Below the pieces are notes generated by a model. It did no database searches and was not told the origin of the DNA. It saw only the letters and a list, made by a program, of their open reading frames with translations. Positions 1-44,484 of a stretch of DNA of 64,000 nucleotides are shown here, in pieces (position 1 is the stretch's first letter; each line of letters starts with the position of its first letter). The DNA is from Nitrospirota bacterium (GTDB taxonomy: Bacteria > Nitrospirota > Thermodesulfovibrionia > Thermodesulfovibrionales > Dissulfurispiraceae), in the NCBI GenBank assembly GCA_963790025.1, contig CAWBMP010000004.1, forward strand, positions 736,001 through 800,000. The letters run 5' to 3'. A program made the position numbers and the translations under genes.

Positions 1-1
1 A

Positions 2-6728: not shown

Positions 6729-6784
6729 ATTGATTCCTTAAATGTAACATCAGCATTGTCTTGAAAAGTATAGCAACTCTCAGT

Positions 6785-8338: not shown

Positions 8339-8439
8339 TATTACACCTCCCCAGAAAGGGTTCTATTTACAAAATTCGGTGAGAATATTATGACTTATGA
8401 TGCGGATTACTTATAGATTACAGGATGACAAACCCGATA

Positions 8440-9426
8440 TCAAGCTATTTTCAGCCCGCTCTGCCTGATCAACTCCAGATCATCACCAAAAGTCCTGCCT
8501 GTCGTCGTCAGGTAATTACCTGTAAGGACGGCATCGGCGCCTGCCAAAAATACCATACAGCTGAACTCACCAAGTGTCTGCACCCTGCCTCCGCACACGC
8601 GTATCTGTTTACCAGGCAGGATGAAACGGTAAAGGCTGATAATTTTAAGCGCCTCGAACGGGGGAAGGACCGCATGCTCACCCAGCGGAGTACCTTTGAC
8701 AGGTATAAGAAAATTGATCGGCACAGAGTCGACATCAAGCGCTCTAAGAGCAAAAGCAATGTCCACTCTGTCCTGCCACGTCTCTCCAATACCGAAAATA
8801 CCTCCCGAACACACGGAAAGCCCTGCTGACAGCGCCGCCTCGATGGTTTTCAGTTTTTCATGGTATGTATGGGTGCTGCAAATTTCGGGGAAAAAATTTT
8901 CTGATGTTTCAAGATTATGATGATAACGCACAAGGCCGCATTCCCCGAGATAAGATAGTTCCTCTTTGTTGAGAAGCCCCAGAGTTGCACACGGCAAAAG
9001 GCCCGTGCGTCTTACTTCCAGTACCATACTGCCCATTTTTCTCAGTTCGTTACTGCTGATCTTTCTGCCACTCGTGACAATGCAGAACCTCCTTACCCCG
9101 GCGTTCTTTGCCTCCAGCGCTTTTTCGATAATCCTGCTTTTCTCAAGGAGCGGATATACCTCGACACCTGTGCTGACCTTCGAGGATTGGGCGCAATACG
9201 AACAGTCCTCGGAACAAGCTCCTGATTTTGCATTGACGATAGCACACAGATCGATGATGTCGCCTCTGAAGCACTGCCTTATGCCGCTCGCAGCAGCAAA
9301 AAGACCGAGCAAGTCGGCATCACTAAGCCCGCTTATCCAGAGGGCCTCTTGAGGCGTAATGGTACCCCCGGCGATGACCTTATCTCTCAGGGCCTCAATC
9401 GTGGGCATTATTATCAGTGTCTTCAT
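8440..9426 (-). CDS. bioB: Biotin synthase
   Basis: NAKSGACSEDCSYCAQS, YHHNLETS, CSGGIFGIGE, VPINFL, GNYLTT; exact start uncertain. Confidence 0.95.
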   Translation of the reverse strand: MKTLIIMPTIEALRDKVIAGGTITPQEALWISGLSDADLLGLFAAASGIRQCFRGDIIDLCAIVNAKSGACSEDCSYCAQSSKVSTGVEVYPLLEKSRIIEKALEAKNAGVRRFCIVTSGRKISSNELRKMGSMVLEVRRTGLLPCATLGLLNKEELSYLGECGLVRYHHNLETSENFFPEICSTHTYHEKLKTIEAALSAGLSVCSGGIFGIGETWQDRVDIAFALRALDVDSVPINFLIPVKGTPLGEHAVLPPFEALKIISLYRFILPGKQIRVCGGRVQTLGEFSCMVFLAGADAVLTGNYLTTTGRTFGDDLELIRQSGLKIA

Positions 9427-9450: not shown

Positions 9451-9587
9451 TTAAAAGAATGGTAGCAAATACTTTGCCACATCGTCGGGATCAGCTTTAA
9501 GCACTGCTTTTACCAAGTATGTTCTTCCATCCCATTTTTTATCTATAATCTCTACCTTCACAACACCAGCGGTCAGAGCGGTTATTT
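9451..9587 (-). pseudogene. Internal remnant of an unrelated protein gene (KITALTAGVVKVEIIDKKWDGRTYLVKAVLKADPDDV...)
   Basis: Open frame without a start, cut at the boundary of the duplicated promoter module (9588); recalled as resembling an N-terminal domain of TPR-containing proteins of anaerobes. Confidence 0.5.
9464..9479 (-). promoter_or_regulatory. sigma54 promoter motif for bioB-pccB-pccA
   Basis: TGGCAAAGTATTTGCT on minus strand: GG-N10-GC, near consensus TGGCAC-N5-TTGC. Confidence 0.7.
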
Positions 9588-9772
9588 TATTATAATGCAA
9601 TTAATTGCATGCAAAAATGTGATTAATATGCAGTATATTGCATACACAAACAGTTCAAATATTGAAGACCCTGATTTGGGAATTCATTATGCCGATCAAT
9701 GAAGACGTTCTGTTACTGATTTTCAAGGTCTATTATTGCTAAACAATATTGGAAGATGGTACAATTATTGCT
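9588..9772 (+). promoter_or_regulatory. Regulatory module copy 1: two palindromic putative enhancer sites + sigma54 promoter motif
   Basis: ATGCAATTAATTGCAT (9595-9610), ATGCAGTATATTGCAT (9628-9643), TGGTACAATTATTGCT (9757-9772); block repeated at 25314-25497. Confidence 0.8.
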
Positions 9773-9890
9773 CCGTCAGGCCCGAGGATGCCGACTTTCT
9801 TAATTAAGGACTTCGGGACAACAGTGGGTGCCTTAAGCGAATGACATCCCATAAAGAGACCCTTAGTGATATTACTTTCAAGGAGAGACT

Positions 9891-11441
9891 ATGAAGACCG
9901 ATGACCAACTGGAACATCTGAGAAAACTCAGGGAAAAAGCTTCTTTGGGCGGTGGTCAGAAAAGAATCGATAAACAGCATGAAAAAGGCGTTTTGACCGC
10001 CAGGGAGCGTATTGATTTGCTTTTAGACAAGGGCTCTTTCGAGGAATTCGATATGTTCAAGACCCATAGATGCAGGGATTTCGGCATGGATAAGCAGGTC
10101 TTCCTGGGAGACGGTGTAGTAACCGGGCATGGCACTGTGGATGGCCGTATTGTCTATGTTTTTGCCCAGGATTTTACCGTATTCGGTGGCTCCCTGTCAG
10201 AAACCTTTGCGGAAAAAATCTGTAAGATAATGGATCTTGCCATGAAAAACGGCGCTCCTGTGGTCGGATTGAATGATTCCGGCGGGGCGCGTATTCAGGA
10301 AGGAATTGAGAGTCTCGCGGGCTATTCGGCTATATTTCAACGCAATGTCATGGCCTCGGGGGTAGTTCCCCAGATCTCGGCGATTTTTGGTCCCTGTGCC
10401 GGTGGAGCGGTATATTCGCCGGCCCTCACCGATTTTGTAATCATGGTCCAGAATAAATCGTATATGTTTCTCACCGGCCCGAAAGTCGTCAAATCACTGA
10501 CCCATGAAGATGTCAGCGAAGAAACTTTAGGCGGGGCAGCGATGCATGCCAGTCGCAGCGGAGTTATTGATCATGCTGCTGGGTCAGATGCCGATGCTAT
10601 CGCCTATGTTCGCCGACTGCTTTCGTTTCTGCCCCAGAATAATATGGAAAATCCTCCCCTTGTGCCGTGCACCGATCCGCCTGATCGGGAGAGTGTCGCA
10701 CTCAACCAGATTGTTCCTGAAAATCGCAATGTTAGTTACAATATGAAAGATGTTATCATTCAAACAGTAGATAACAATGATTTTTTTGAGATTAAGGAGA
10801 ACTTCGCACCGAATCTCTTAGTCGGGTTCGCCAGGTATAACGGGATGAGTGTCGGGATAGTTGCCAACCAGCCGGGCTATCTCTCCGGTGTCCTCGATAT
10901 CGACTCCTCAATAAAGGGTGCTCGTTTTGTCAGGTTCTGCGATTGTTTCAATATTCCGGTTGTTACCTTTGTCGACGTTCCTGGCTTCTTGCCGGGAACC
11001 GCTCAGGAGTTTGGCGGAGTAATACGTAACGGTGCTAAAATTCTCTATGCCTTTGCCGAGGCTACTATTCCCAAGGTAACTGTCATTACAAGGAAAGCGT
11101 ATGGCGGAGCCTATTGCGTCATGTCCTCCAAACATTTACGCGGCGATATTAACTATGCCTGGCCCACCGCTGAAATTGCAGTCATGGGGGCAAGAGGTGC
11201 TGTTGGAGTTTTGTATGCCAAGGATGCCAAAAAAGCCCCGGATCCAAGCGCATTTTTGGCAGAAAAGGTTCAGGAGTACAAGGATGCTGTTGCCAATCCT
11301 TACGTAGCAGCCCAACGCGGTTACATCGATGATATTATCGAACCGTCGAAAACCAGGTCAAGAATAATCAAGTCACTGGGGCAGCTCCGGAATAAGCGCG
11401 ATACAAATCCTATGAAAAAGCACGGTAATATACCACTATAA
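9891..11441 (+). CDS. Methylmalonyl-CoA carboxyltransferase (transcarboxylase 12S / PccB / MmdA-like)
   Basis: Carboxyltransferase motifs [33 protein letters not shown]; in operon with 5S-like subunit. Confidence 0.9.
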
Positions 11442-11479
11442 CAGTCGCAAATACGTCTGAGTATTATAAGGAGATCCAC

Positions 11480-11764
11480 ATGACAGTGAAGATTTTTATT
11501 AAACGAAAGGTGCAGGATAATAATGTCGTTGAACTGACGCTCCTCCTTAATAAGTTGCGGGCTCTCGCTCTCATTCAACCCGGCTATCTCTCAGGAGAAA
11601 CCTTGAATAGAATAGACAAAAAAGATGAGTGCATGGTGATTGGTACCTGGCGTTCCTTGGAAGACTGGAATAGTTGGGTAAACAATCCGCAACGCGTCGA
11701 AGTTCAGGCGGAGATAGATAAACTGCTTGGCGAGGAAACAGAATACGCCGTGTACAGCTACTAA
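11480..11764 (+). CDS. Antibiotic biosynthesis monooxygenase (ABM)-fold small protein
   Basis: QPGYLSGETL...VIGTWRSLEDWNSW...R pattern typical of ABM dimeric barrel; SD AAGGAG. Confidence 0.75.
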   Translation: MTVKIFIKRKVQDNNVVELTLLLNKLRALALIQPGYLSGETLNRIDKKDECMVIGTWRSLEDWNSWVNNPQRVEVQAEIDKLLGEETEYAVYSY

Positions 11765-11829
11765 TGGTGGTCTTAAAGACAATGACTCGGGATTTTCATG
11801 CTGCCCACGGTGCTGTTTTTGGAGGTGAT

Positions 11830-12039
11830 ATGATGACAGGTCAAAAAAAGAAAATGGCCGCCGCCCTAGCTGCCGTGAGTCTCTATTTGCAAGAGGAGGA
11901 AGCTATGGTGGCGAAAGAGCAGCAAGCACCTCTCAAGAAACCTCAGAGTTTCGAGTTCAGCCAGTGGGGACAGAGTGGACGGCAGGAGATGATGGCCATG
12001 CGGAAATTAATCCAGCTGAGGGCGTTTACGCGCTTTTAA
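11830..12039 (+). CDS. Small protein, possible acyl-CoA carboxylase epsilon-like accessory subunit
   Basis: SD GGAGGT; AAALAAVSLYL helix, linker, then SQWGQSGRQEMM; lies between CT and 5S genes. Confidence 0.6.
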   Translation: MMTGQKKKMAAALAAVSLYLQEEEAMVAKEQQAPLKKPQSFEFSQWGQSGRQEMMAMRKLIQLRAFTRF

Positions 12040-12081
12040 TAGCATCAATTGTTAATGATGAAGAAGGAGGATACACATACA

Positions 12082-14073
12082 ATGAGCGATCAAGCAATGA
12101 GCAATGAAGTGAAGATGACCCCGTTGAACTATTCCGCAGACCGGCCAAAGGCAAAGAATCCTCTTAAGATTATGGATCTGTCCCTGCGTGATGGCCATCA
12201 GTCCCTTTTCGCTACTCGTGGGCGTACAGAGGATATGATTCCGGTAGCTGAACTGATGGATGAGGTCGGGTTCTGGGCGATTGAAACTTGGGGTGGAGCC
12301 ACCTTCGATACAATGCACCGGTTTCTCAACGAAGATCCGTGGGAACGTTTACGCACCTTGAAACGCTATATTAAAAAGACCCCTTTCTCTATGCTGCTTC
12401 GGGCGCAAAACCTGGTCGGTTATCGAAATTACGCCGACGACCTGGCCTTTGCTTTTGTTGAACGCGCGGCGGAAAACGGTATGGATATTTTCAGGACTTT
12501 CGATGCCTTAAACGATTATCGCAACTTCGAGACAGTAGTCAAACAGATAAAAAAGAGTGGCAAACATTTTCAAGGCTGTATATGTTACACCCTCACCGAG
12601 CCACGGCTTGGCGGCGAAGTCTACAATCTTGAATATTATACTGATAGAGCAAAATCCCTTGAGTCGATGGGAGCGGATTCCATCTGTATCAAGGATATGG
12701 CTGGGCTATTGGCTCCCTATGATGCCTATCCACTCATTAAGGCCCTGAAAAAAGGGGTCAAAGTACCCATTCATCTGCACAGCCATTTTACCTCAGGCAT
12801 GTCGCCAATGTCGCACCTTAAGGCCATTGAAGCAGGAGTGGACATTATCGATACTTGCATGACGCCATATGCTTACCGGACTTCGCATGCTGCTGTTGAG
12901 CCTTTGGTTATGGCCCTTTTGGGGACAAATCGCGATACCGGCTTTGATATTAAAAAGTTAGCTAAGATCAATGAAATACTTGAAAAAGAGGTGATGCCGA
13001 AATATAAGCATCTCCTCGATGACTCGAAGGTTTCGATTATCGATATCAATGTCTTGCTGCATCAGACTCCGGGCGGGATGTTGTCGAACCTGGTCAATCA
13101 ATTACGGGAAATGGATGCCCTGGATAAAATTGATGAGGTGTACAAGGAACTGCCGCGTGTGCGCAAAGACCTCGGCCAAGTCCCCCTTGTTACCCCGACC
13201 AGCCAGATAGTTGGTGTGCAGACCGTCAACAATGTCCTGCATGACACTCCCGGCGAACGTTATAAGATGATCACCGGGCAGGTAAAGGACCTCTGCTTCG
13301 GCTTGTACGGCAAGACCGCTGTGCCTATTAATCCTGAAGTGCAAGAAAAGGCCCTGAAAGGCTACCCTCGCGGAGAAAAGCCGATCACCTGTCGTCCGGC
13401 AGAAGTTCTCGAGCCGGAACTGGCCAAGGCGAAAGCCGAGATTGGCGATTTGGCAGCAGATATCGATGACGTCATCACCTATGCTCTGTTTCCAGTCACC
13501 GGTAAGAAATTTCTTGAGTGGAAGTATGGCAAAGCAGAGGTTCCAGCCAGTGTGAAGCCGATCACCCTCGAGGATGTCAAGAAAAGAGATGAACTTGTGA
13601 AAAAGGCCGTGGCCGGTAAACTCGCTGAGGTGAAGCAGGTTGAAAAACCTCCGAAGTCACAGGCAGTCAGGACCTTCAACGTTTTTATTGATGAGGAATT
13701 TTTTGCAGTCGAGGTTGATCCTGTTGGCAACACTCATCTTGTGTCGGTTCCCCAACCAGTGGCCGCTGCTCCTGTGAAGGTCCCTGTACCCTTACCTGCT
13801 CCTGCACCTGCGCCGGCCCCGGCTCCTGCACGTGCCGCTCAACCTGCACACCATGGAGAGGGAACAGTCCTTCTTGCGCCTATGCCCGGGATGATCATCA
13901 AGTATATGGTAATAGCCGGAGATGCTGTAAAGAAAGGCGATACCATTGTTGTCCTTGAAGCAATGAAGATGGAAAACAACCTTACGGCACCCTGTGATGG
14001 GAAGGTCCAAGGTATCAAGTTTGCCAGTGGCGACACGGTCGAAAAAGGTGCCGTTCTCTGTGTAATCGTGTAA
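12082..14073 (+). CDS. Pyruvate/oxaloacetate carboxyltransferase (transcarboxylase 5S / PycB / OadA-like) fused to biotin carrier
   Basis: LRDGHQS, WGGATFD, KDMAG, HSH, PGGMLSN, LVTPTSQIVG; Pro/Ala linker; EAMKM biotin motif; SD AAGGAGG before ATG 12082. Confidence 0.9.
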   Translation: MSDQAMSNEVKMTPLNYSADRPKAKNPLKIMDLSLRDGHQSLFATRGRTEDMIPVAELMDEVGFWAIETWGGATFDTMHRFLNEDPWERLRTLKRYIKKTPFSMLLRAQNLVGYRNYADDLAFAFVERAAENGMDIFRTFDALNDYRNFETVVKQIKKSGKHFQGCICYTLTEPRLGGEVYNLEYYTDRAKSLESMGADSICIKDMAGLLAPYDAYPLIKALKKGVKVPIHLHSHFTSGMSPMSHLKAIEAGVDIIDTCMTPYAYRTSHAAVEPLVMALLGTNRDTGFDIKKLAKINEILEKEVMPKYKHLLDDSKVSIIDINVLLHQTPGGMLSNLVNQLREMDALDKIDEVYKELPRVRKDLGQVPLVTPTSQIVGVQTVNNVLHDTPGERYKMITGQVKDLCFGLYGKTAVPINPEVQEKALKGYPRGEKPITCRPAEVLEPELAKAKAEIGDLAADIDDVITYALFPVTGKKFLEWKYGKAEVPASVKPITLEDVKKRDELVKKAVAGKLAEVKQVEKPPKSQAVRTFNVFIDEEFFAVEVDPVGNTHLVSVPQPVAAAPVKVPVPLPAPAPAPAPAPARAAQPAHHGEGTVLLAPMPGMIIKYMVIAGDAVKKGDTIVVLEAMKMENNLTAPCDGKVQGIKFASGDTVEKGAVLCVIV

Positions 14074-14087
14074 ATCTGTGAGGTTCA

Positions 14088-14597
14088 ATGCTGATAAAAG
14101 AGTTGAATGGACATACCCCGAAGTTCGGTAAAGATTGTTTTCTGGCCGAGAATGCCGTCATTGTTGGCGACGTGGTGATGGGAGATCAGTGCAGTATCTG
14201 GTACAATGCTGTGGTTCGGGGTGATGTTAATTTTATTCGGATGGGTAACAAAGTGAACATTCAGGATGGCGCTTCAGTGCATGGTACCTATCAGAAATGG
14301 CCGGCCACTATCGGTAATAACGTCTCCGTTGGACACAATGCCATCGTTCATGGATGCACTATTCACGATAATGTTCTTGTGGGAATGGGGGCGATTGTTA
14401 TGGATGGTTGCGTGGTTGAAAGCAATTCAATCATAGCTGCCGGCGCCGTAGTTACCGAAGGTACACGGGTAGAGGCGGGAACGATTTATGCCGGCGTGCC
14501 CGCGAGAAAGATAAAAGACATCAGTCAAGAACTGATTTCTGGTGAAATTGAAAGAATAGCGAACAACTATATTAAATACGCCGGCTGGTACAAATAG
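14088..14597 (+). CDS. Gamma-class carbonic anhydrase family protein
   Basis: Hexapeptide repeats, RGDVN, NIQDG, VH / GHNAIVHGC Zn-binding histidines. Confidence 0.9.
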   Translation: MLIKELNGHTPKFGKDCFLAENAVIVGDVVMGDQCSIWYNAVVRGDVNFIRMGNKVNIQDGASVHGTYQKWPATIGNNVSVGHNAIVHGCTIHDNVLVGMGAIVMDGCVVESNSIIAAGAVVTEGTRVEAGTIYAGVPARKIKDISQELISGEIERIANNYIKYAGWYK

Positions 14598-14785
14598 CAT
14601 TTTCTACCCTGCACCCTTCTTTTATTTGGAGATTCTTGACGAAAGCGGACACAGAGTCTCCTGATGCAAATCGGAGAAATAACGCCAGGTTATCACTTCT
14701 GTCGAAAAGTGGACTTCACCAAGCTTATCGGCACTTTCAGAAAATTGCAATTATTGAGGATTTCCAAAAGAACATATTACTGGGT

Positions 14786-14819
14786 GTAACTTGCAACGTT
14801 ACGCGTAACATGTTATCTC
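14786..14819 (+). promoter_or_regulatory. Putative higBA promoter/operator
   Basis: Overlapping palindromes GTAAC-N7-GTTAC, GTTACGCGTAAC and TAACATGTTA over TTGCAA-17-TATCTC. Confidence 0.55.
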
Positions 14820-14827
14820 AATAACGG

Positions 14828-15106
14828 GTGATACGGTCATTTAGACATAAGGGACTTGAGGTTTTTTTTCGCGATGGGGAAAAGAATGGGATTGACCCGA
14901 GCCACTCTGCAAGACTTGCGAGGATACTCGACCGTCTGGATGCTTCAATGTCTGCTCAGGACATGAACTTGCCAGGCTTGAAATTGCATGAGTTGAAAGG
15001 CCGGGAGAAAGGAGCTTGGTCAGTCACTGTGAGCGGCAACTGGATGGTGGTTTTTAGATTTGAAGGCAATGATGCGGTCCAAGTTGATTACCTGGATTAT
15101 CATTAG
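14828..15106 (+). CDS. higB: HigB-type toxin (RelE/ParE superfamily)
   Basis: MIRSFRHKGL...LHELKG...WSVTVSGNW...DYLDYH; toxin upstream of antitoxin. Confidence 0.92.
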   Translation: MIRSFRHKGLEVFFRDGEKNGIDPSHSARLARILDRLDASMSAQDMNLPGLKLHELKGREKGAWSVTVSGNWMVVFRFEGNDAVQVDYLDYH

Positions 15107-15121
15107 GGAAAAGAGTTTGAC

Positions 15122-15412
15122 ATGATTGGAAAAAGAAAACCGGTTCATCCCGGAGAAGTATTATTGGAAGATGTTATGAAACCGCTTGGTCTAACGGTTA
15201 CAGAGGCTGCCGCACGATTGGGTGTGACCAGAAAAACACTTTCGACCTTACTGAACGGGAAGGCATCGTTAAGCCCTGAAATGGCGATGAGAATAGCGAG
15301 TGCGACAAACACGTCACCTGAGAGCTGGCTATATATGCAGGCAAAATTGGATCTCTGGAACGTGGCAAGAAAGCCCCCGAGAGTGCGAGAGCTAAAGTCA
15401 GTAGCTGTATAA
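15122..15412 (+). CDS. higA: HigA antitoxin (HTH_3)
   Basis: HPGEVLLED...LGVTRKTLS.LLNGKASLSPEMA.R...W..MQ..DLW. Confidence 0.92.
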   Translation: MIGKRKPVHPGEVLLEDVMKPLGLTVTEAAARLGVTRKTLSTLLNGKASLSPEMAMRIASATNTSPESWLYMQAKLDLWNVARKPPRVRELKSVAV

Positions 15413-15436
15413 ACGCCCAGGGAAGAACGCTTTGGA

Positions 15437-16379
15437 GAAACGGGGTCAGGTCTAGAATGTTTACCTTTTTGCATGCCCTCGAACAACCCGGCTTATATAT
15501 GTAAAATGCAAATTGAGATGATTTGCGATTGCCCGCTGAGTATATCCAAATTCGTAGACAGCAGTAATTATTTTGCTGTCCCTCTGACTTTTATCCATTA
15601 ATATGTTTTTGCTGAATATGCTATCCAACCCGGGTCTGTTGACATACCGTTGCGTTTTGGATATTTCGGCAATATTCTTATGTTTATTGAGATGATGATT
15701 CAGGCTATCAACGAATTCTTCTTTTCCGAGAACTACCTGGCCCTTAACAGCATTCCAAATACTTTCTTGTTCGATGCCTGATTTCACAAACTCACGGTAT
15801 TTTCTTTCTGCCTCACTCCTTTCCTCGCTGAATTGCCCTAGTATCCAGTCAGTGGTAAGACACGGATGAGGCGTTTTCTTTCCTGCGGTTTCCCCGTAGC
15901 TGGACCATTTCCAATCTTCAGGCTGTTCAACTATGTGCGCACGTACCGGATTCAGCACAACATATCGGCACACTTCAAGAAGATGACTGTCTTTCTGGAT
16001 CACAATAGCCTTATATCTACCTTGCAACAGATGACCTGATCGGTTGCGCTTTTTGTTGTAAGCCTGGCTGTAGACACTGTTTAATTGCCTCATCCCTATG
16101 GACAGATTTCCATCCGGCGTTTCAATCATCAAATGATAATGGTTATCCATCAGACAGTAGGCATGGCATAGCCAATTGTACCGTCTATTGATATCGACAA
16201 GAATCCCAAGGAATGTTTCACGGTCAGCGTCATCCCTGAAAATTGACTTCTTCTCGTTTCCACGAGAAGTAACATGATATACAGCGCCAGGATATTGTAT
16301 CCGCAACGGTCGAGCCATAACAGCCAATTTATCAGATTTATCATGAACATGTAAAACATTATAGACCTGACCCCATTTC
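15437..16379 (-). mobile_element. RAYT-type (Y1/HUH) transposase gene bracketed by 26-bp inverted repeats
   Basis: GAAACGGGGTCAGGTCTAGAATGTTT (15437-15462) vs reverse complement of 16354-16379, 24/26 identical. Confidence 0.75.
15461..16318 (-). CDS. REP-associated tyrosine transposase (Y1_Tnp) with C-terminal HTH
   Basis: MARPLRIQYPGAVYHVTSRGN start, YCLMDNHYHL HUH motif, YVVLNPVRA, WKWSSY; C-terminal helix-turn-helix. Confidence 0.88.
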   Translation of the reverse strand: MARPLRIQYPGAVYHVTSRGNEKKSIFRDDADRETFLGILVDINRRYNWLCHAYCLMDNHYHLMIETPDGNLSIGMRQLNSVYSQAYNKKRNRSGHLLQGRYKAIVIQKDSHLLEVCRYVVLNPVRAHIVEQPEDWKWSSYGETAGKKTPHPCLTTDWILGQFSEERSEAERKYREFVKSGIEQESIWNAVKGQVVLGKEEFVDSLNHHLNKHKNIAEISKTQRYVNRPGLDSIFSKNILMDKSQRDSKIITAVYEFGYTQRAIANHLNLHFTYISRVVRGHAKR

Positions 16380-16438
16380 CTTTCGGGCAAGTTGCGATTT
16401 CCCTCGTTTGTAGTGTATTGTAATACAGGAGGTGCATT

Positions 16439-16657
16439 ATGAGAACAGTATTATCGATTAGCCTTCCGGAAAACATGTCAGAGGAACTTGAAATGGTTGC
16501 AAAGAGTACCGGCCGTAACAAGAGCGACATTGTTAAAGAATCGCTTGGTCTATTCCTGTGGGAAATGAAACTCAAGGCGGTACAGAAGAAACTTGGCCCA
16601 AAGGCAAAAAAGCTTGGCATGGTCAGCGAAGATGATGTATTTAAGAAAATATCATGA
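16439..16657 (+). CDS. Ribbon-helix-helix (CopG family) antitoxin
   Basis: LSISLPE...NKSDIVKESL RHH pattern; overlaps PIN gene (ATGA). Confidence 0.8.
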   Translation: MRTVLSISLPENMSEELEMVAKSTGRNKSDIVKESLGLFLWEMKLKAVQKKLGPKAKKLGMVSEDDVFKKIS

Positions 16658-17055
16658 TTGTCGTCTTTGATACCAACGTTCTGATTGCGGCAATTATCAC
16701 TGAAGGGCTTTGCTCGAAACTATTGCACAGGGCACGCGGCGGAGAGTTCTCCCTCATCCTATGCCCATTCATTCTGAAAGAACTTCGGAGTATTCTCTCA
16801 ACGAAATTTCGCCTCTCGCGGGAAGACGTGGCTTTAGCTATGGAACCTATAAACGAGGCGATCTATGAAGTTATTGAGCACGGCATCAATATCTCCGGAA
16901 TCTGTCGGGATGCTGATGATGACAACATTATTGCGTGTGCGGTGGCAGCAAAGGCTGATTATCTTGTGACCGGCGACTCTGATCTGCTGGAGATAAAAAG
17001 CTATCACGATATTAAGATTGTAACTCCAAGAGATTTCGAAGTCTTATTTGTGTGA
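16654..17055 (+). CDS. PIN-domain toxin (VapC-like)
   Basis: VVFDTNVLIAA, CRDADDDNIIACA, YLVTGDSDLL, IVTPRDF. Confidence 0.9.
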   Translation: MIVVFDTNVLIAAIITEGLCSKLLHRARGGEFSLILCPFILKELRSILSTKFRLSREDVALAMEPINEAIYEVIEHGINISGICRDADDDNIIACAVAAKADYLVTGDSDLLEIKSYHDIKIVTPRDFEVLFV

Positions 17056-17058
17056 AGG

Positions 17059-17829
17059 ATGATGAATAGTATTCAAAGGCAGGTTAACGTCTTCAGGCAA
17101 ACTCTGAAAGAACATGCTGACGCTGAAAGGGCAATACAAGAAAAGAAATACCTGAAAAGTCCTTTCAAGTTTTTCGGTACATCTCTGCTGCTTGCGGATA
17201 ATATTGCCAAAGGGTTCAGAAGATCAAATATGGATGCCGGACGGGACTACGTTTTTGCTCTGGCAGCGAAGCTCTGGAGTTCGGATTACCACGATGAAAA
17301 GAGACTCGGCCTCAGGATGCTGCAGTATTATCCGGAATATATCGAATTTGCTATAATGCCGATGCTCGAAAAAATGCTCATGCAGTCTTCGGGATGGGAC
17401 TTTGTAGATGATATATCGATCCACCTCGTCGGCACGGTGCTCGGGAAAGCCAAAAAAGCATATGTCTACCTGGAAAAGTGGAGCGAACTGGACAATTTCC
17501 GGATGAGGCGGGCATCTCTCGTTTCACAGATTCTCCTTTTCAGGAACGGCAATGGAGATAAAAAACTTTTCTTCAGTTTCGCAGAAAAAATGATTCAAGA
17601 AAAGGAATTCTTTATTAGGAAGGCTATAGGATGGTGTATCAGGGAAATCTCTAAGGCCGATCCCGATGAGGCCTTTGATTTCCTCGTGACAATAAAAGGC
17701 AGGGCATCAGGCCTCACACTCAGAGAAGGAGCGAAGAGACTCTCTGATAGCCAAAAAGGAGCAGTACTGGCTGATCGCAAATGTCAACATCTTCTCACAG
17801 CCAACAGTTTCAAAGTCCTGCAACTATAG
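17059..17829 (+). CDS. DNA alkylation repair protein (AlkD-like HEAT-repeat family)
   Basis: LWSSDYHDEK, GWDFVDD, EFFIRKAIGWCIRE, LTLREG. Confidence 0.8.
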   Translation: MMNSIQRQVNVFRQTLKEHADAERAIQEKKYLKSPFKFFGTSLLLADNIAKGFRRSNMDAGRDYVFALAAKLWSSDYHDEKRLGLRMLQYYPEYIEFAIMPMLEKMLMQSSGWDFVDDISIHLVGTVLGKAKKAYVYLEKWSELDNFRMRRASLVSQILLFRNGNGDKKLFFSFAEKMIQEKEFFIRKAIGWCIREISKADPDEAFDFLVTIKGRASGLTLREGAKRLSDSQKGAVLADRKCQHLLTANSFKVLQL

Positions 17830-17861
17830 CAAGGTTACAAATGGAAATCGTATTCATACTC

Positions 17862-18137
17862 CCTGTCAAACTCGAAGAACAGGGTAAGATCACCCATTAA
17901 AAGATGCAAGCGCTTATCTCCGGCATCGCTGCCGTTGTAGCCCACGCAAAGATAGTTAATCCCATAAGAAAGTTCTCGCTTTGCCGGGATCCGGAAGATA
18001 ACATGATTCTGGACTGCTGTTACGCTGCGAAGGCTAAGATATTGATTACGGGCGATAGGGACCTTATCGAGATTACCGGCTTGCCTTTTAGCATCAAGTT
18101 CATGACACCGCAAGCATTTGTGGAAGTTGAGGATTGA
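17862..18137 (+). pseudogene. Truncated second PIN toxin (no N-terminal DTN motif, in-frame TAA at 17898-17900)
   Basis: CRDPEDNMILDCC...LITGDRDL...MTPQAF C-terminal half only. Confidence 0.7.
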
Positions 18138-18353
18138 AAAGCGTGTACGGGTAATCAAGGACGGCCAAGTATCAGGACGCTTCGTTTGATAACTCATCGA
18201 TTTTTCTGTGTGAAGTGCTTCCTGAAGAACTCACTGGCTGACCCTACTACAGTCTTGATTAGTACAAATAGAAATCGAGTGGCTTGCCTACGTCAGCTTG
18301 TTAGCACTGGGTTGATTGGTGCATTTTGATGCAGATTGGTGTATAATAATTTT

Positions 18354-18611
18354 ATGGCTACAGTGAAAAAAGCAATTCGTCAAAGCGTTACCCTACCTTC
18401 TCAGGTTGCCAAGCAGGTGAAGGCATTGGCGAAGAATCGAAAAGTAAGCTCGAATAGGATACTGGTGGAACTTGTTGAAACCGGTCTGCGATCAAAAGAA
18501 GAGGAGAAACGCAGATTCTTCGAATTGGCGAATCGGTTAAGCACTGCAACAGACGCGAAAGAACAACAAGAATTGAAGGAACAACTCGCCAGAATGACTT
18601 TTGGAGACTGA
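18354..18611 (+). CDS. RHH-like protein, putative antitoxin
   Basis: RQSVTLPSQVAKQVKALAK...SNRILVELVETGL; GATTGGTG direct repeats upstream (18314, 18334). Confidence 0.65.
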   Translation: MATVKKAIRQSVTLPSQVAKQVKALAKNRKVSSNRILVELVETGLRSKEEEKRRFFELANRLSTATDAKEQQELKEQLARMTFGD

Positions 18612-18854
18612 GTGCCTAAAATCCGATGGACCGACCTTCCTCCTGCTCTCCGTGATCATCTCTTTGAACGGCTTCGGGAACGTCAAATTACGGCTGAGGA
18701 TATTTATCAACTGAAACTATGGCGAGAATCTGACCCCGAAGCCCCGGATGGCGACTGGTATAAGGATTTTGGTTCATTCAAGATATGCGGCAGGGGTCAG
18801 CACCCAAAAACTTTTCTTCTTCGAGGTCAACCTGCCAAAGGCGAAAAATTATAA
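18612..18854 (+). CDS. Small conserved-looking hypothetical protein, putative toxin
   Basis: 80 aa, starts immediately after the RHH gene stop; WYKDFGSFKICG motif. Confidence 0.6.
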   Translation: MPKIRWTDLPPALRDHLFERLRERQITAEDIYQLKLWRESDPEAPDGDWYKDFGSFKICGRGQHPKTFLLRGQPAKGEKL

Positions 18855-19153
18855 ACGACAGCATCTGATCTGACAACGATCTGCACGCTAACTTCGGACT
18901 CTTATAAAGTTCTATTTTCCAGATGCACATTTAAACCCGTATTCCGCAGAATTTCCGCTCTCCTGATTTTGCGGATAAGTCGGGTGAAACCCTCACTATA
19001 AATCTCACCGTTTCCATCGATAATCTGCATCTCGTTGTCCGCAAGACGTGTGAGGGTTATTCAGGTCTAAAGAAAAATCCCCATGAAGGCCACTGCAGGT
19101 GTTCACTTTTTAAAAAAAGGTGAATTCTACTTTGTCGCAGCGGCAAGTACATT

Positions 19154-20143
19154 TTATTTGCCTTTTTTGTTATACAAAAAGGCGAGAAGGCTATCGGCGG
19201 CTGCAGTCGGCGAAGTCTTTTTTTCTTCCACGTTTCTTCTTAACGTTGGTAAGGCCTCGCGGACATGCGGGCTGGTGTAGAACCAGTGTCGTAATCCTTC
19301 GTCAATAAGAAAGGCCATCCAGTCGAGGGCTTGGGTTTTTCTTTTTTTCGCCATTTCGCCGCTGACGGTCAATTTGTCGCGATGGTCCAGGATAGTCTCC
19401 CAGATTTTGTCAATTCCTTTGCCTTCCATGGCGCTGCAGGTAAGAACCGGGGGACTCCAATTCGGACTGTTGGGCAAGAGCATGTGCAAAGCCGTCTGAT
19501 ACTCCTTCTGAGCTATCTCAGCCCGCAACAGATTGTCTCCGTCGGCTTTATTGATGACAATGGCGTCAGCCACTTCAAGCACGCCCTTTTTTATTCCTGT
19601 AAGTTCGTCTCCCGCTCCTGCAATCATCAGCACCAGGAAAAAATCGACCATGGAGGCTACGGAGGTCTCCGCTTGACCGATGCCAACCGTTTCGATTATC
19701 ACAACATCATAGCCGGCGGCTTCGCAGACGAGCATGGTTTCCCGGGTTTTTCTGCCGACACCGCCGAGAGTTCCACCTGACGGGGACGGGCGAATAAAGG
19801 CGTTTGGGTCAACCGCCAGTCGTTCCATGCGAGTTTTGTCACCCAGAATACTGCCGCCGCTGCGGCTGCTGCTTGGGTCGATGGCAAGGACGGCAACCCG
19901 GTGTCCAAGATCTGTGAGCATCGTCCCAAACCTTTCGATAAATGTACTCTTTCCAGCACCAGGAACGCCGGTGATGCCGACACGAATGCCGCGGCCGGTA
20001 TAAAGAAGGAGTCTGTCAACTATGGTTCGGGCAAGCTCTTGATGGGTCGGAAGAGTGCTTTCGACGAGGGTGATGGTTCTGGCGAGTGTCAGAGGATCAC
20101 GATTAAGAACTCCTGTCACATAGTGCTGGGGATCATTTAACAT
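19154..20143 (-). CDS. meaB: Methylmalonyl-CoA mutase-associated GTPase
   Basis: GITGVPGAGKST, DPSS, GGSILGDKTRM, FIRPSPS, ETVGIGQ, NKAD. Confidence 0.95.
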   Translation of the reverse strand: MLNDPQHYVTGVLNRDPLTLARTITLVESTLPTHQELARTIVDRLLLYTGRGIRVGITGVPGAGKSTFIERFGTMLTDLGHRVAVLAIDPSSSRSGGSILGDKTRMERLAVDPNAFIRPSPSGGTLGGVGRKTRETMLVCEAAGYDVVIIETVGIGQAETSVASMVDFFLVLMIAGAGDELTGIKKGVLEVADAIVINKADGDNLLRAEIAQKEYQTALHMLLPNSPNWSPPVLTCSAMEGKGIDKIWETILDHRDKLTVSGEMAKKRKTQALDWMAFLIDEGLRHWFYTSPHVREALPTLRRNVEEKKTSPTAAADSLLAFLYNKKGK

Positions 20144-20227
20144 TTAATATTTTAACATTGATCCCGGTTGGTAAGCCATTGTCTTCTAAATGGACTTCTC
20201 GCAAAAAAGCCATGAGAAGTACACATC

Positions 20228-22369
20228 TTATTTAAGATATTTTTCTTCCAACAAGGCAAGAGTTTTATCGGCAGATTCGGTGATCGGCGTACCCGGCCCA
20301 AAAATAGCCTTTACTCCGGCTTTATAGAGGAAATCATAATCCCCGGGAGGTATAACACCCCCGGCAACAACGAAAATTTCGCCACCGCCGATTTTTTTCA
20401 GTTCTTTGACCAGTGCAGGAATGAGCGACTTGTGCCCGGCCGCAAGACTTGAGGCGCCAACGACATGAACGTCGTTTTCAATGGCCATTTTCGCCGCCTC
20501 CTCAGGGGTCTGGAACATCGGGCTGATGTCAACATCGAAGCCGAGGTCGGCATAGGCGCAGGCAACAACCTTGAAGCCGCGATCATGACCGTCCTGGCCC
20601 ATCTTGGTAACCAGGAGTCGTGGGCGTCGGCCCTGTTTTTCAAGGAACACATTTGTTCGTTGTTTTATCGCCGTGATAGCATTGTTGTCACCCTTGTATT
20701 CCGCCGAGTAGGCGCCGGAGATACAATGGGTCGTGGCAACGAAGCGGCCAAACACCGATTCCATGGCAGTAGAAATTTCACCCAATGTGGCTCTTGCCCG
20801 GACCGCAGGCAGTGCTGCCTCCAACAAGTTGCCGCCGTTTTTTGCGGCGTTGGTCAGATCTGACAGGGCTTTTTCGACTGCCGCCTTGTCGCGGCCGGCC
20901 TTGATTTTTTTGATGCTGGCAATCTGTTCATCGCGAACGGTAGCCGGTACTTCCCGGACTTCGAAATCTATTTTCTCGTCGGCAAGCTTGTATTTGTTGA
21001 CACCGACTATCACATCAAGGCCCTGATCGATCCGAGCCTGTTTTCTTGTCGCTGATTCCTCGATACGCATTTTGGGCATACCGCTTTCGATGGCCTTGGC
21101 CATTCCACCAAGTTCTTCGATTTCATCGATTATTTTTTGAGATTCATTGATGATGCTGTTGGTCAGTGATTCGAGATAGTATGAACCGCCCAAGGGATCA
21201 ATGACATGACAGATCTGCGATTCTTCCTGGATGATGATCTGGGTGTTGCGGGCAATGCGGGCTGAGAAATCAGTCGGCAGACCGATAGCTTCATCAAAGG
21301 AATTGGTATGCAGTGACTGGGTCCCGCCAAGTGCAGCGGTCATGGCTTCGAGAGTGGTACGAATGACGTTGTTGTATGGGTCCTGCTGGGTGAGACTCCA
21401 CCCCGACGTCTGGCAGTGGGTACGGAGCATGGAGGACTTGGGATTTTTCGGGTTAAACCGGCTCATTAACCGATACCAGAGGAATCTGGCTGCCCGCAGC
21501 ATGGCAATATCCATGAAGAAATTCATGCCGATGCCGAAAAAGAAAGAAAGCCTTGGGGCAAAAGTGTCAACATCCATACCGCTCTTCAATGCCGCTTTCA
21601 CATATTCCACACCATCTGCTAAAGTAAAGGCCGTCTGCAGAACGCTATTGGCGCCTGCTTCCATCATATGGTAGCCGCTGATGCTGATGGTATTGTATTT
21701 GGGCATCTCCCTGGAACAATAGGCCATGATATCGGAGACAATACGCATCGATGGCGCGGGAGGGTAGATATAGGTGTTTCGGGTAAGATACTCTTTGAGG
21801 ATGTCGTTCTGTATAGTGCCTTCCAGTTTGTCGTGGGCAACGCCCTGTTCTTCGGCGGCAACAATGTACCCGGCGAGTATCGGAATAACCGCACCATTCA
21901 TGGTCATCGATACAGACATCTGGTCAAGAGGAATACCGTTGAAAAGAATTTTCATATCTTCAACGGAATCTATAGCAACACCCGCCTTGCCGACATCGCC
22001 GGCAACCCGCGGATGGTCGGAATCATAACCCCTGTGTGTAGCCAAATCGAAGGCGACCGACAGACCTTTTTGCCCGGCGGCCAAGGCCTTATGGTAAAAG
22101 GCATTCGATTCTTTGGCGGTTGAGAAACCGGCATACTGACGAATAGTCCATGGTCGCCCGGTATACATGGTGGCCATGGGGCCCCGGACATAAGGAGCCA
22201 TCCCGGGGATGGTGTTAGCTGATTCCATGCCCTCCAGATCTTCGGCGGTATAAAGAGGTTTGACTTTAATACCTTCCGGGGTCATCCAGGAAAGTGTCTC
22301 TACGGACTTGCCCTTCATCTGCTTTTCAGCAATTCCTGTCCATTTTGGCAGTTGTGGATGTTGTGCCAT
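20228..22369 (-). CDS. scpA: Methylmalonyl-CoA mutase (AdoCbl-dependent)
   Basis: [25 protein letters not shown]12-binding motif. Confidence 0.96.
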
Positions 22370-22400
22370 TTATTACTCCTTGTCTAACGGTATTTCATCG

Positions 22401-22434
22401 CACCCCAGAAAGTCTACGACTTTCCGGGGACCCC
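22401..22434. repeat. REP-like hairpin CACCCC-stem-GGGGACCCC (copy 1 of 3)
   Basis: CACCCCAGAAAGTCTACGACTTTCCGGGGACCCC; related copies at 22915-22948 and 22979-23010. Confidence 0.75.
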
Positions 22435-22470
22435 GTCATGCCCGTGAAGCGGATAAGTGCAGAGGGCGTG

Positions 22471-22872
22471 TCAACGCTCACAGAGTTCAACCAGGACACC
22501 TCCGGTGGCCTTGGGGTGCAGGAAGGCAATCTTGGCACCACCCGCACCAATTCGCGGTTGCTCGTCGATGAGTTGGATACCTTTTTCCTTAAGTTCTTTT
22601 AAGGCCTCTTCGATATTAGCTACCCGAAAAGCGACATGCTGAAACCCAGCGCCTTTCTTTTCAATAAATTTTGCCACCGGCCCATCGGGTGAGGTTGACT
22701 CAAGAAGTTCCACTTCACTTTCACCGACCGGAAAAAACGCTGTGGTCACTTTTTGGGTTTCTACCGTTTCAGAGCCTTCGAACCTCAGTCCGAGAACGTC
22801 GGACCAAAAAAGTTTTCCGTCATCAATACTGTTGACAGCTATTCCCATATGGTCAATCTTGAGTATTTCCAT
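22471..22872 (-). CDS. mce: Methylmalonyl-CoA epimerase
   Basis: IDHMGIAV, ELLES, GFQHVAF, AFLHPKATGGVLVEL; SD GGAGG before ATG 22872. Confidence 0.95.
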   Translation of the reverse strand: MEILKIDHMGIAVNSIDDGKLFWSDVLGLRFEGSETVETQKVTTAFFPVGESEVELLESTSPDGPVAKFIEKKGAGFQHVAFRVANIEEALKELKEKGIQLIDEQPRIGAGGAKIAFLHPKATGGVLVELCER

Positions 22873-22882
22873 TGTATGCCTC

Positions 22883-23055
22883 CACAGTTTCGTATAAAGT
22901 CCATATGCTAGTGCCACCCCAGTAAGTCTGCGACTTACTGGGGACCCCGGTGCGTTGCCCTTCGCCCTTAGTCACTCGCACCCCGAAAGACTTCGGCTTT
23001 CGGGGACCCCGTGCGGACTCGTGCGCCTTGCCTATGAACTTTTTACGAAACCGTC
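22883..23055. mobile_element. MITE-like element with imperfect terminal inverted repeats, carrying two nested REP-like hairpins
   Basis: CACAGTTTCGTATAAAGT ... ACTTTTTACGAAACCGTC (15/18 complementary); non-coding. Confidence 0.65.
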
Positions 23056-23068
23056 ATATTTGTTAACA

Positions 23069-23938
23069 TTAAAAAATGCCGGCACAGAAATCGCCGAACC
23101 TGCCAAGATTATCACATATATGAATTCCCGCTTCCTTCATGACCGCAATCTTTGACTGGGCAGTACCGCTCTTGCCGCTCACTATCGCCCCTGCGTGTCC
23201 CATGCGTCTGCCCGGGGGAGCGCTTAATCCCGCAACAAACCCGACTATGGGCTTACTGACTTTTTCTGCAATATACTCAGCAGCCTCTTCCTCTGCAGTG
23301 CCGCCGATTTCACCCACAAGGACGATCCCCTTTGTCTCGGGATCTTCTTCAAAGGCCTTGAGGCAATCAATAAAGTTTGTTCCGTTTACCGGGTCACCTC
23401 CGATGCCGAGGCAGGTTGTCTGGCCGATTCCTTTCGTAGTCAATTGATGCACAACCTCATAGGTCAACGTGCCGGAGCGCGACACGACGCCGATGGGGCC
23501 GCCGGGCTTGTGGATGAAGCCGGGCATGATACCTATCTTGCACTGACCTGGCGTTATGATTCCGGGACAGTTCGGCCCGATAAGCCTGACTTGTTTCCCA
23601 TTCAGATAATTCTTGATCCGCATCATGTCGAGCACCGGAATGCCTTCGGTGATGGCGACAATAATATCCACATCACCGTCGATCGCCTCCATGATGGCCT
23701 TTGCGGCAAAGGCCGGAGGGACAAAAATCATGCTGCAGTTCGCACCGGTTGCACGCACAGCCTCCTTGACAGAATTAAATACCGGCACATCGTCCATGTT
23801 CTGTCCGCCTTTCCCGGGGGTCACGCCGGCCACGACCCGCGTACCGTATTCAATACACTGCCGGGTATGGAACTGGCCTTCTCTGCCGGTAATCCCCTGG
23901 ACAAGCAGTCTTGTTTCCTTATCTACAAATATTGCCAT
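23069..23938 (-). CDS. sucD: Succinyl-CoA synthetase alpha subunit
   Basis: [37 protein letters not shown] phospho-His. Confidence 0.97.
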
Positions 23939-23971
23939 GATCTTCTATCCTTCTTTCCAAAACAATATCAT

Positions 23972-25135
23972 TCAATTCCTGGTGATCTCTGCAATTTTTC
24001 CGGCTGCATCGTTCAGGTTGTCTGCAGTAATGAGATTCAGGCCTGAGACCGCAAGAATTTCCCTGCCCTTTTCCACATTGGTCCCCTGCAGCCGGATCAC
24101 AACCGGTACCTTTATTCCCGTTTTCCTGGCTGCCTGGACAACCCCTTCGGCCAGGACGTCGCACCGCAGAATCCCGCCGAAAATATTGATCAGAACCGCC
24201 TTAACATTGCCATCGCTCAAAATGATGCGGAAACCGTTTTCAACCATTCCCGCATCGGCCCCGCCCCCCACGTCAAGGAAATTCGCAGGCTCCGCGCCGA
24301 CGCTCTTGATCAGGTCCATGGTTGCCATGGCGAGTCCAGCGCCGTTAACCATATTGCCGACGTTGCCATTTAGGTTGATGTAATTAAGGTTGTATTTCGA
24401 GGCCTCCACTTCCAGGGGGTCCTCTTCATCAATGTCCCTGAACTTCAGAATATCCTTTTGCCGGAACAGGGCGTTATCATCGATCTCCACTTTTGCATCC
24501 AAAGCAACAAGTGTCTCCTGAGCAGTAATCACGAGAGGATTGATCTCGAGCAGTGAACAGTCGGCTTCGATAAAAAGTCTGTACAGGTTTTCAACCAGCG
24601 CGGAAAACTTTTCGGCAAGCGAATCGGGCAGATTGAGACCGGCTCCGATTTCTCTACAATGACCGGGCTCGATTCCAGTGAGAGGATTAATCAACACCTT
24701 GATTATCTTTTCAGGGGACTTCGCGGCAACCTCTTCGATATCCATTCCCCCTGCCCGGCTTGCAATTATCATGATCTTTGCTGTGGACCGGTCCGGGATG
24801 ATCGAAAAATAAAGCTCCTGAGTAATATCAAGCCCTTGCTCCACCAGGACTTTTCGGACCTTCCTTCCCTGCGGTCCTGTCTGGGGAGTCACTAGTGGCC
24901 TGTCGAATATGGCCGCTGCCGCGCTTTGCACCTCCTGAATATTCCGGGTAAGTTTAACGCCTCCTCCCTTGCCTCGGCCACCCGCATGAACTTGTGCCTT
25001 GACTACAACTGGAAACCCGCCAAGCCTTCCAGCAATAGCACAGGCATCATCAGGGCTTGTGGCAACATACCCCTCAGGCACAGCAATATGATGATTCCGA
25101 AATAATTCCTTGGCCTGATATTCATGTATTTTCAT
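23972..25135 (-). CDS. sucC: Succinyl-CoA synthetase beta subunit
   Basis: MKIHEYQAK, KAQVHAGGRGKGGGV, VNGAGLAMATMD, NIFGGILRCD. Confidence 0.97.
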   Translation of the reverse strand: MKIHEYQAKELFRNHHIAVPEGYVATSPDDACAIAGRLGGFPVVVKAQVHAGGRGKGGGVKLTRNIQEVQSAAAAIFDRPLVTPQTGPQGRKVRKVLVEQGLDITQELYFSIIPDRSTAKIMIIASRAGGMDIEEVAAKSPEKIIKVLINPLTGIEPGHCREIGAGLNLPDSLAEKFSALVENLYRLFIEADCSLLEINPLVITAQETLVALDAKVEIDDNALFRQKDILKFRDIDEEDPLEVEASKYNLNYINLNGNVGNMVNGAGLAMATMDLIKSVGAEPANFLDVGGGADAGMVENGFRIILSDGNVKAVLINIFGGILRCDVLAEGVVQAARKTGIKVPVVIRLQGTNVEKGREILAVSGLNLITADNLNDAAGKIAEITRN

Positions 25136-25232
25136 TAACCCGCCTTCTCATCTAAAATTTCTGTTGGCCTGTTTGCCTCATTAGAAGACGTTCGGCCTTC
25201 TATCGGGACAAACAATTTTTAAAAGTAATCCT

Positions 25233-25248
25233 TGCAAAAAAGGGGCCA
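25233..25248 (-). promoter_or_regulatory. sigma54 promoter motif for sucC-sucD-mce-scpA-meaB
   Basis: TGGCCCCTTTTTTGCA on minus strand: GG-N10-GC. Confidence 0.7.
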
Positions 25249-25313
25249 ATTGAATATTAACAGAAATACCATGAAAAGGGAATAACTTTATCCACCCACT
25301 CCTGCGTAAAGCA

Positions 25314-25497
25314 TATTATAATGCATTTAATTGCATGCAAAAATATGCTTAATATGCAGTATATTGCATAAACAAACAGTTCAAACATTGAAGACTCTGA
25401 TAAGGGAATTCATTGTGCCGATCAATGAAGACGTTCTGTTTTACTGATTTTCAAGGTCTATTGTTGCTAAATATTGAAAGATGGTACAATTCCTGCT
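25314..25497 (+). promoter_or_regulatory. Regulatory module copy 2: two palindromic putative enhancer sites + sigma54 promoter motif
   Basis: ATGCATTTAATTGCAT (25321-25336), ATGCAGTATATTGCAT (25354-25369), TGGTACAATTCCTGCT (25482-25497); homologous to 9588-9772. Confidence 0.8.
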
Positions 25498-25535
25498 AAC
25501 CAGTACCCGAGACTGTTGTGTTATTCTAAGAACAC

Positions 25536-25687
25536 GGCCAGAGACCGCCAGGCTTTAGCCTGGGGATTAATGGCCTCCCGGAGCAGAGCGGAGGCGCCTT
25601 TTGGCATATTCTGGTATGGCCAAAGGTCAGCACCAGGGATGCCGGAGGCCTGAAACCCCGGTCTTAAGACCGGGTGAGAGGGTTCAA
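25536..25687 (+). mobile_element. Non-autonomous IS200/IS605-like element (PATE) made of two subterminal hairpins
   Basis: CCAGGC-TTTA-GCCTGG (25548-25563) and CCCGGTCTTAAGACCGGG (25657-25674) followed by GAGAGGGTTCAA; no tnpA/tnpB. Confidence 0.55.
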
Positions 25688-25712
25688 TATATATGTCCAC
25701 CGGAAACGTGCC

Positions 25713-25850
25713 ATGAGTTGCCTTGATGAAATAAAACATCTCATAGAAACCGACAAAAAATTTGTCTGGCATCCCTTTACCCAGATGAAGGGCTGGCTTG
25801 AAGAGGACCCGATTATCATTGTCAAGGGGAAGGATTTTGGAAAGATATAG
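25713..25850 (+). pseudogene. bioA: N-terminal remnant of DAPA aminotransferase BioA (45 codons)
   Basis: MSCLDEIKHLIETDKKFVWHPFTQMKGWLEEDPIIIVKGK then stop; WHPFTQM is the BioA N-terminal signature. Confidence 0.8.
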
Positions 25851-25908
25851 AGCGTAACAAGAGACTTCGAGGTTATCGAAGAAAAAATCCTTAAAGGAGA
25901 AATGAGCG

Positions 25909-27822: not shown

Positions 27823-27856
27823 CTGCCATTAAAAAGGAGACTGAAGGGACCACGGC

Positions 27857-28543: not shown

Positions 28544-28655
28544 AGGCAGGCTAAAGGCTATAGGCAAAAGGCAATAGGTGAAAGACAAAAACCAAAACAC
28601 TATAAGTAAGGGAATATCTTCTATTTTTTTTCTTATAGCCTTTTGCCATTTGCCT
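28544..28655. repeat. Inverted array of short ~7-bp tandem units (AGGCxAW ... WTxGCCT)
   Basis: AGGCTAAAGGCTATAGGCAAAAGGCAATAGG facing TATAGCCTTTTGCCATTTGCCT between sdhC and sdhA. Confidence 0.65.
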
Positions 28656-28678
28656 GATTTTTTTGAGGAGATACAATC

Positions 28679-38043: not shown

Positions 38044-38102
38044 TTTTTACCTCCGTAGTTTTAAACTATTCTCAACAAACATTAGTAACTGTTTGCGTCT
38101 AA

Positions 38103-40301: not shown

Positions 40302-40361
40302 AACTCAAACCTCCTGACATTAGTTTTTAAAAGTCAAACTGCGACTGTACTTTACCGCACT

Positions 40362-41699: not shown

Positions 41700-41711
41700 T
41701 TTATACCTCCC

Positions 41712-42650: not shown

Positions 42651-42712
42651 ATATACCTCCGTTTTTTAAGGTTAGAGGATAGAGGATAGACCTCGGACCT
42701 CAAACGCATTTT

Positions 42713-44453: not shown

Positions 44454-44484
44454 TTGAAACCTCCTTGCATGGCTAACTAAAGCT

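Follow-up and report, generated by a model that had tools for sequence, protein, structure and literature searches.

We analysed a 64,000-nucleotide stretch of the genome of a Nitrospirota bacterium (contig CAWBMP010000004.1, positions 736,001 to 800,000; hereafter the window), in which a non-coding block of about 185 bp stands twice beside genes of the methylmalonyl-CoA pathway. In our view this block is probably a sigma-54 promoter that was duplicated together with its activator sites. The protein that binds them would be a BkdR-like PAS-PAS activator, encoded outside the window, that switches on the methylmalonyl-CoA genes in response to propionate or a related short acid. The block as such is likely a sigma-54 promoter plus upstream activator sites, and the predicted mechanism is one of ordinary sigma-54 control: the activator would oligomerise on a triad of sites and loop to a sigma-54 polymerase on the triad's 19-bp side, at a distance of about 110 bp, at the transcarboxylase operon for one copy and at prpE-sdh-mdh for the other, and it may also loop to the sucC promoter on the opposite side of the second copy. 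The signal is probably not 2-methylcitrate, because prpC is broken in this genome.

Duplicated block, predicted activator sites and predicted promoters

The two copies (A and B) share 90.4% identity over 187 columns, and a genome-wide search found these two and no other in the 3.45-Mb genome. Contigs of an independent assembly (run X1), with zero letter differences, span 9633-9981 and 25268-25693, which takes in copy B entirely and copy A for the most part, so that an assembly artefact could be ruled out as the source of the duplication. The elements of the two junctions are the following:

9588-9772, +: cassette copy A, activator sites and rightward sigma-54 promoter (duplication, conservation in relatives)
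9596-9642, +: predicted triad of copy A, with strong sites at 9596 and 9629 (24.0 and 19.7 bits) and a weak middle site at 9610 (5.3 bits; site matrix)
9757-9772, +: predicted sigma-54 -24/-12 promoter of the transcarboxylase operon, 14.4 bits, 113 bp from the triad (matrix; kept in 7 full copies)
9464-9479, -: sigma-54-like motif before bioB, 16.0 bits, junction chimera of doubtful function (matrix, relatives)
9466-9600, -: broken-gene fragment of 45 codons, 64% identical to the open reading frame (ORF) at C4:1530231 (sequence comparison)
25314-25497, +: cassette copy B (duplication, X1 contig coverage)
25322-25368, +: predicted triad of copy B, with sites at 25322, 25336 and 25355 (22.5, 14.5 and 19.7 bits; site matrix)
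25482-25497, +: predicted rightward sigma-54 promoter of copy B, 11.4 bits, 112 bp from the triad (matrix)
25233-25248, -: predicted sigma-54 promoter of sucC, 9.0 bits, 72 bp from the triad (matrix; GG-N10-GC kept in G004 and G005)

As the original prediction had described, each copy holds a pair of ATGCA-N6-TGCAT palindromes 33 bp apart (9595, 9628, 25321 and 25354), and four of the 11 matches to this pattern in the genome lie inside the two blocks. We noticed a third site between the palindromes, good in copy B (25336) and weak in copy A, and the predicted operator is thus a directional triad of [TC]GCA-N6-TGC[AG] sites with offsets of 14 and then 19 bp, the 19-bp side facing the promoter. 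With a site matrix trained on 27 sites from 10 loci, all in other genomes, the window sites rank 1, 2, 4 and 5 in 3.45 Mb, and three site clusters lead the list: copy B with 56.7, copy A with 43.7 and, with 43.3, a remnant of the prp operon 4.8 kb before the window; the best of 5 shuffles reached 30.8. Over the 7 full copies of the block the cores of the outer sites show no deviant cell (0/112), against 8% in the other columns and 27% in the middle site. These ranks and this geometry, together with the link to BkdR-like genes described below, support the proposal that the palindromes are activator sites.

The genome has one match to rpoN (E 2.7e-59), and all four GG-N10-GC motifs of the original prediction sit where it had placed them. 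For the sigma-54 matrix, 12 intergenic sites with a range of 16.5-20.4 were used, chosen by seed. The repeated palindromes lie 72-115 bp from the promoters, which fits the roughly 70-200 bp expected of sigma-54 activator sites. The rightward motif is conserved in the 7 full copies, GA being frequent at its -12 position, and the GG-N10-GC of sucC is retained in 3/3 genomes, its distance to the triad being 72, 118 and 161 bp. Three of the four predicted promoters, the two rightward ones and that of sucC, are supported. Many promoters of the proposed regulon have GA or GT, not GC, at -12 (promoter regions of L116, L118, L119, L123 and L132-L135).

The spacer between triad and promoter holds two further palindromes (TTCAA-N3-TTGAA and TTCATTG-N7-CAATGAA, at 9653-9703 and 25379-25429), the arms of the former being invariant across 7 block copies. 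These are possibly the sites of a second regulator; genome-wide scans gave 8 and 29 loose matches, among which no clear regulon was apparent. The IHF consensus had a single 1-mismatch match, in copy A only, which is uninformative.

A BkdR-like activator and its proposed sites in other genomes

The original prediction held activator and operator to be unidentified, yet both match the BkdR family, and the candidate gene (C4:1657685-1659392) does lie outside the window, as proposed. It encodes a BkdR-like PAS-PAS sigma-54 enhancer-binding protein, 55% identical to BkdR of Bacillus sp. N5-665 over 363 amino acids (43% for the next enhancer-binding protein in the genome), which lacks the first 120 residues of BkdR. 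The architecture of two PAS domains, an AAA+ domain with GAFTGA and a helix-turn-helix of Fis type was found with Pfam on the orthologue of G002. Its best annotated matches are Bacillales proteins (51-55% identity), which we regard as BkdR since their genes lie before bcd-lpdA-bkd or ptb-bcd-buk-lpd-bkd. We call the protein BkdR-like, and not BkdR proper, because it does not adjoin a ptb-bcd-buk-bkd operon here; its neighbours are unrelated to those genes, and buk follows an orthologue only in G013. A protein 90% identical to the activator of a relative comes from a record labelled Dissulfurispiraceae, and on this basis we place the organism in that family of Nitrospirota.

Between bkdR and ptb of Bacillus sp. 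N5-665 we found the same 14/19 triad, with a sigma-54 promoter 110 bp further; on likeness only, the triad here may be the same operator as the one behind bkdR.

Ten genomes of the genus (this one and nine others) and a wider set of 61 were compared. Beside the methylmalonyl-CoA cluster of G002, G004 and G007 stands a PAS-PAS sigma-54 activator gene with three [TC]GCA-N6-TGC[AG] sites adjoining. The activator has matches in 18 of the 61 relatives, and sites occur within 700 bp of 8 of the 19 orthologue loci, heading prpB (G012, G060), butyrate kinase (G013), a metallo-beta-lactamase-fold gene (G014, G033), sucC or acnA. At least two sites lie upstream of prpB in 8/8 genomes with the activator (2 of which belong to the matrix training set) and in 0/4 without it.

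The pattern alone retrieved 37 triad loci (34 metagenomic, 3 genomic), for which 15 activators were tried as queries. Eight of the loci have any activator match, and in all eight a BkdR-like gene ends at most 30 bp away (two genes share one triad); 4 more triads head prpB. The strict triad gave 6 matches in 401 Nitrospirota genomes (control 0), and the loose 33-bp pattern matched in 17 of the 61 genomes, genuine and chance matches being mixed. A similar triad is present on G+C-rich metagenomic contigs (L174, L175, L176, L182, L186, L187 and L195), two of them with a good sigma-54 motif 61 bp off on the 14-bp side; no activator match was found on these seven contigs.

The block itself is present in three of the nine other genus genomes, twice in G005, twice in G007 (one partial) and three times in G004 (one partial). 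One copy always precedes the carboxyltransferase gene, and the others precede radical-SAM/nitroreductase genes, pccB (a partial copy) or nothing obvious. G002 lacks this cassette and has another, akin to the promoter region of prpB in G003 and G008; its three copies stand before carboxyltransferase, sucC and an acetate-uptake transporter.

Alternative readings

Several observations weigh against the reading that we prefer. The related genomes are not independent of one another, the genomes are 74-100% complete, the sigma-54 matrix was built on 12 seed-selected sites, the sucC motif is weak (5% chance per 200 bp) and the bioB motif is not conserved. In the relatives 3/7 block copies precede radical-SAM/nitroreductase genes or nothing obvious; 11/19 orthologue loci have no nearby sites, and 25 of the 37 pattern-found triads are simple repeats or lack a context of this kind. 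In this assembly the activator gene has a 1-bp frameshift, and a single, otherwise identical contig (333 nt, depth 4.5) shows the gene intact; there are no sites beside the gene, and its product groups with those of G005 and the second G007 copy, on a branch apart from the cluster-linked copies of G002, G004 and G007.

The activator and its sites could be those proposed here and the enhancers still act only toward the 19-bp side, leaving both leftward motifs outside the regulon and bioB with a sigma-70-type promoter. In the Bacillus, prpB-type and cassette loci the main promoter does stand on the 19-bp side, and the copies of the block differ in their left flank. The stretch upstream of bioB in G005 and G007 lacks the GG and resembles an extended -10 sigma-70 promoter (TG-n-TA[CT]AAT). 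A sigma-70 scan stayed at chance level. However, besides the retention of the sucC motif noted above, prpB in L199 and L200 is headed by TGGCC-type promoters that lie behind triads, the triad and promoter before sucC in G002 and G007 belong to the other type of cassette, and the bioB motif scores 16.0, with a 0.3% chance per 200 bp. We regard this one-sided arrangement as possible, if doubtful. The TGGCA of the bioB motif is supplied by Val-Ala codons of the broken-gene fragment that lies between copy A and bioB. As read from the comparison, the motif is a chimera in which these codons have been joined to a sigma-70-like promoter of greater age; the junction is either fortuitous or has made a new promoter. 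The original prediction had joined all four motifs in one regulon; the two rightward motifs and that of sucC probably belong to it, and the odds that bioB-pccBA does so are about even.

Another protein, a different enhancer-binding protein or a repressor, might read the sites, the BkdR-like gene being dead in this strain. The frameshift would fit this, there are 17 other full-length sigma-54 interaction domains in the genome (25 matches in all, with one split among them), and related TGCA palindromes, spaced by 4 nt, have been predicted as XanR and CdsR sites in clostridia, in supplement rows that hold none for BkdR (PMC6615313). Nevertheless, the extra base is absent from the identical contig already mentioned and the triad with a 6-nt spacer tracks BkdR-like genes across phyla, which makes this alternative unlikely.

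A third alternative takes the block for a non-coding RNA or a small mobile repeat that stands here by coincidence, much as the original prediction had allowed for with its possible occurrence next to unrelated genes. This is very improbable: the block has 2-3 copies per genome in 4 of the 10 genus genomes, with changing neighbours, and its spacer is conserved at 85-93%, but this genome has just two copies, the block edges coincide with the first activator site and the -12 element, inspection by eye saw neither terminal repeats nor a target duplication at the edges, and Rfam gave no family at the block (and one lone chance-level match elsewhere in window 1-35000).

Proposed regulon history and comparison with known systems

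The flanking genes are listed below; the labels given to the four operons in the original prediction agree with NCBIfam.

4722-9426, -: bioB, pccB, pccA (NCBIfam)
9891-14597, +: carboxyltransferase (12S-like), two small ORFs, 5S/biotin-carrier fusion and gamma carbonic anhydrase, with gaps of 39, 0, 10 and 15 bp
19154-25135, -: sucC, sucD, epimerase, methylmalonyl-CoA mutase, meaB (NCBIfam)
25498-25908, +: leader with G+C-rich hairpins and, at about 25714-25840, a remnant of the 5' part of bioA, followed by the edge of the duplicated prpE stretch
25909-32270, +: prpE-like acyl-CoA ligase copy 2, sdhC, sdhA, sdhB, mdh

The 411-nt leader separates copy B from prpE copy 2, and its single terminator-like match is on the minus strand; its hairpins (25540-25690) are single-copy in the genome and resemble IS200/IS605-type ends. 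The prpE-like gene is duplicated (99.8% over 1889 nt; window 1-558, C4:734670, and 25864-27797, C4:761909), and acnA-prpE-sdhCAB, one run in G002 and G004, is split in this genome. An insertion of about 4.5 kb (14607-19164) holds HigB/HigA, a REP-associated tyrosine transposase, a PIN gene and a DNA alkylation repair gene, and a contig of a relative in run X2 skips it. The RNA runs X19 and X20 consist of contigs from relatives. Radical-SAM/SPASM and nitroreductase genes (679-2365) travel with the cluster in G005 and G007; they follow a cassette copy in G005, and the nitroreductase gene alone does so in G004. A Wood-Ljungdahl CODH/ACS cluster (36043-44663) stands just downstream of the propionate genes, and a 528-codon ORF (32738-34324) is without Pfam or NCBIfam match. 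The genome has dsrA.

A third copy of the block had been predicted upstream of prpE copy 1. We identified there, 3.4 kb upstream, a weaker, enhancer-like site cluster (offsets 14 and 21) with a weak promoter (6.1 bits), which is not a copy of the block and heads a prpB'-'prpC deletion remnant with intact acnA (G000:C4:731184-734611, L001:15184-18611) and then prpE; in the remnant the first 39 codons of prpB are fused to the end of prpC. Among the ten genus genomes, five have the mutase, two an intact prpB, none both and three neither. The closest outside matches of the pathway are in Desulfobulbales (carboxyltransferase 80%, mutase 86%), whose clusters have a TetR-like gene and, in the 7 loci scanned, no site clusters.

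The first target of the BkdR-like activator may have been prpB-prpC-acnA-prpE. A cluster for the methylmalonyl-CoA pathway, akin to the one in Desulfobulbales, would then have come in, promoter-plus-site modules would have been copied so as to place it under the same activator, and prpB and prpC would have decayed. Wiring of an incoming pathway to a resident propionate activator by module copying, in two ways, is the simplest reading of these sequences, and the copied and reshuffled block bears out the assembly by cassette copying that had been proposed. We put forward only tentatively the fuller scenario of a regulon capture. In it, the acquired methylmalonyl-CoA route would have taken the place of the methylcitrate pathway and, as whole enhancer-promoter modules were copied, come under the BkdR-like activator of the latter, on two independent occasions within the genus (the two cassettes); a deletion here would have fused codons of a broken gene to an old promoter, creating a sigma-54 promoter that recruited biotin synthesis and propionyl-CoA carboxylase.

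The accessible part of the report on Sulfobium gives butyrate, acetate, formate and hydrogen, not propionate (PMC5812927). For propionate use by uncultured sulfate-reducing Nitrospirota, the present analysis proposes a regulator and an operator that can be put to the test. It extends the BkdR family beyond branched-chain amino acids to the two pathways of propionate, with a bearing on the family's signal, and offers the triad as a metagenome marker for such regulons. A literature keyword search, which did not reach the primary studies of BkdR, of the B. subtilis network and of Pelotomaculum, found neither the regulon nor the BkdR site sequence described, so that absence from print is not established. 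RegPrecise presumably holds a BkdR motif of similar kind.

BkdR has two PAS domains, and the ptb promoter depends on it in B. thuringiensis, according to the part of that report available (PMC4428206). The BkdR/sigma-L system of the Bacillus ptb-bcd-buk-lpd-bkd operon shares with the one described here two PAS domains, AAA+ domain, Fis-type helix-turn-helix, 51-55% identity, the triad and the spacing of about 110 bp. In contrast, the activator here is without the N-terminal 120 residues and far from its predicted targets, which are propionate and not branched-chain amino-acid genes and have several promoters, some divergent. PrpR, whose inducer is 2-methylcitrate, was rejected as an identity for the activator, which scores 338.1 bits against the TIGR02329 cut-off of 499.2 and has no match to the PrpR N-terminus. 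Even so, PrpR of Salmonella and E. coli is likewise a sigma-54 activator over a methylcitrate operon, prpBCDE, in the part of the source consulted (PMC3162934), and the ancestral target in these Nitrospirota would also have been prpB-prpC. The methylmalonyl-CoA cluster of Desulfoprunum benzoelyticum encodes enzymes 64-86% identical to those here and has a TetR-like gene, without orthologue in this genome, and no such sites. MmcA of Pelotomaculum thermopropionicum is a PAS-type sigma-54 activator. The mmc cluster of that organism is, in the portion of the report at hand, another clustered methylmalonyl-CoA pathway with a linked regulator (PMC8892533). The architecture, of which the original prediction knew no description, has a precedent in the divergent sigma-54 operons of Desulfovibrio vulgaris (DVUA0100, orange protein complex), where one activator region serves two opposite promoters; the accessible part of that report describes no duplicated cassette (PMC4641369). 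Mechanism and activator family are thus of kinds already known, and what is new here is the target set and the visible history of its rewiring.

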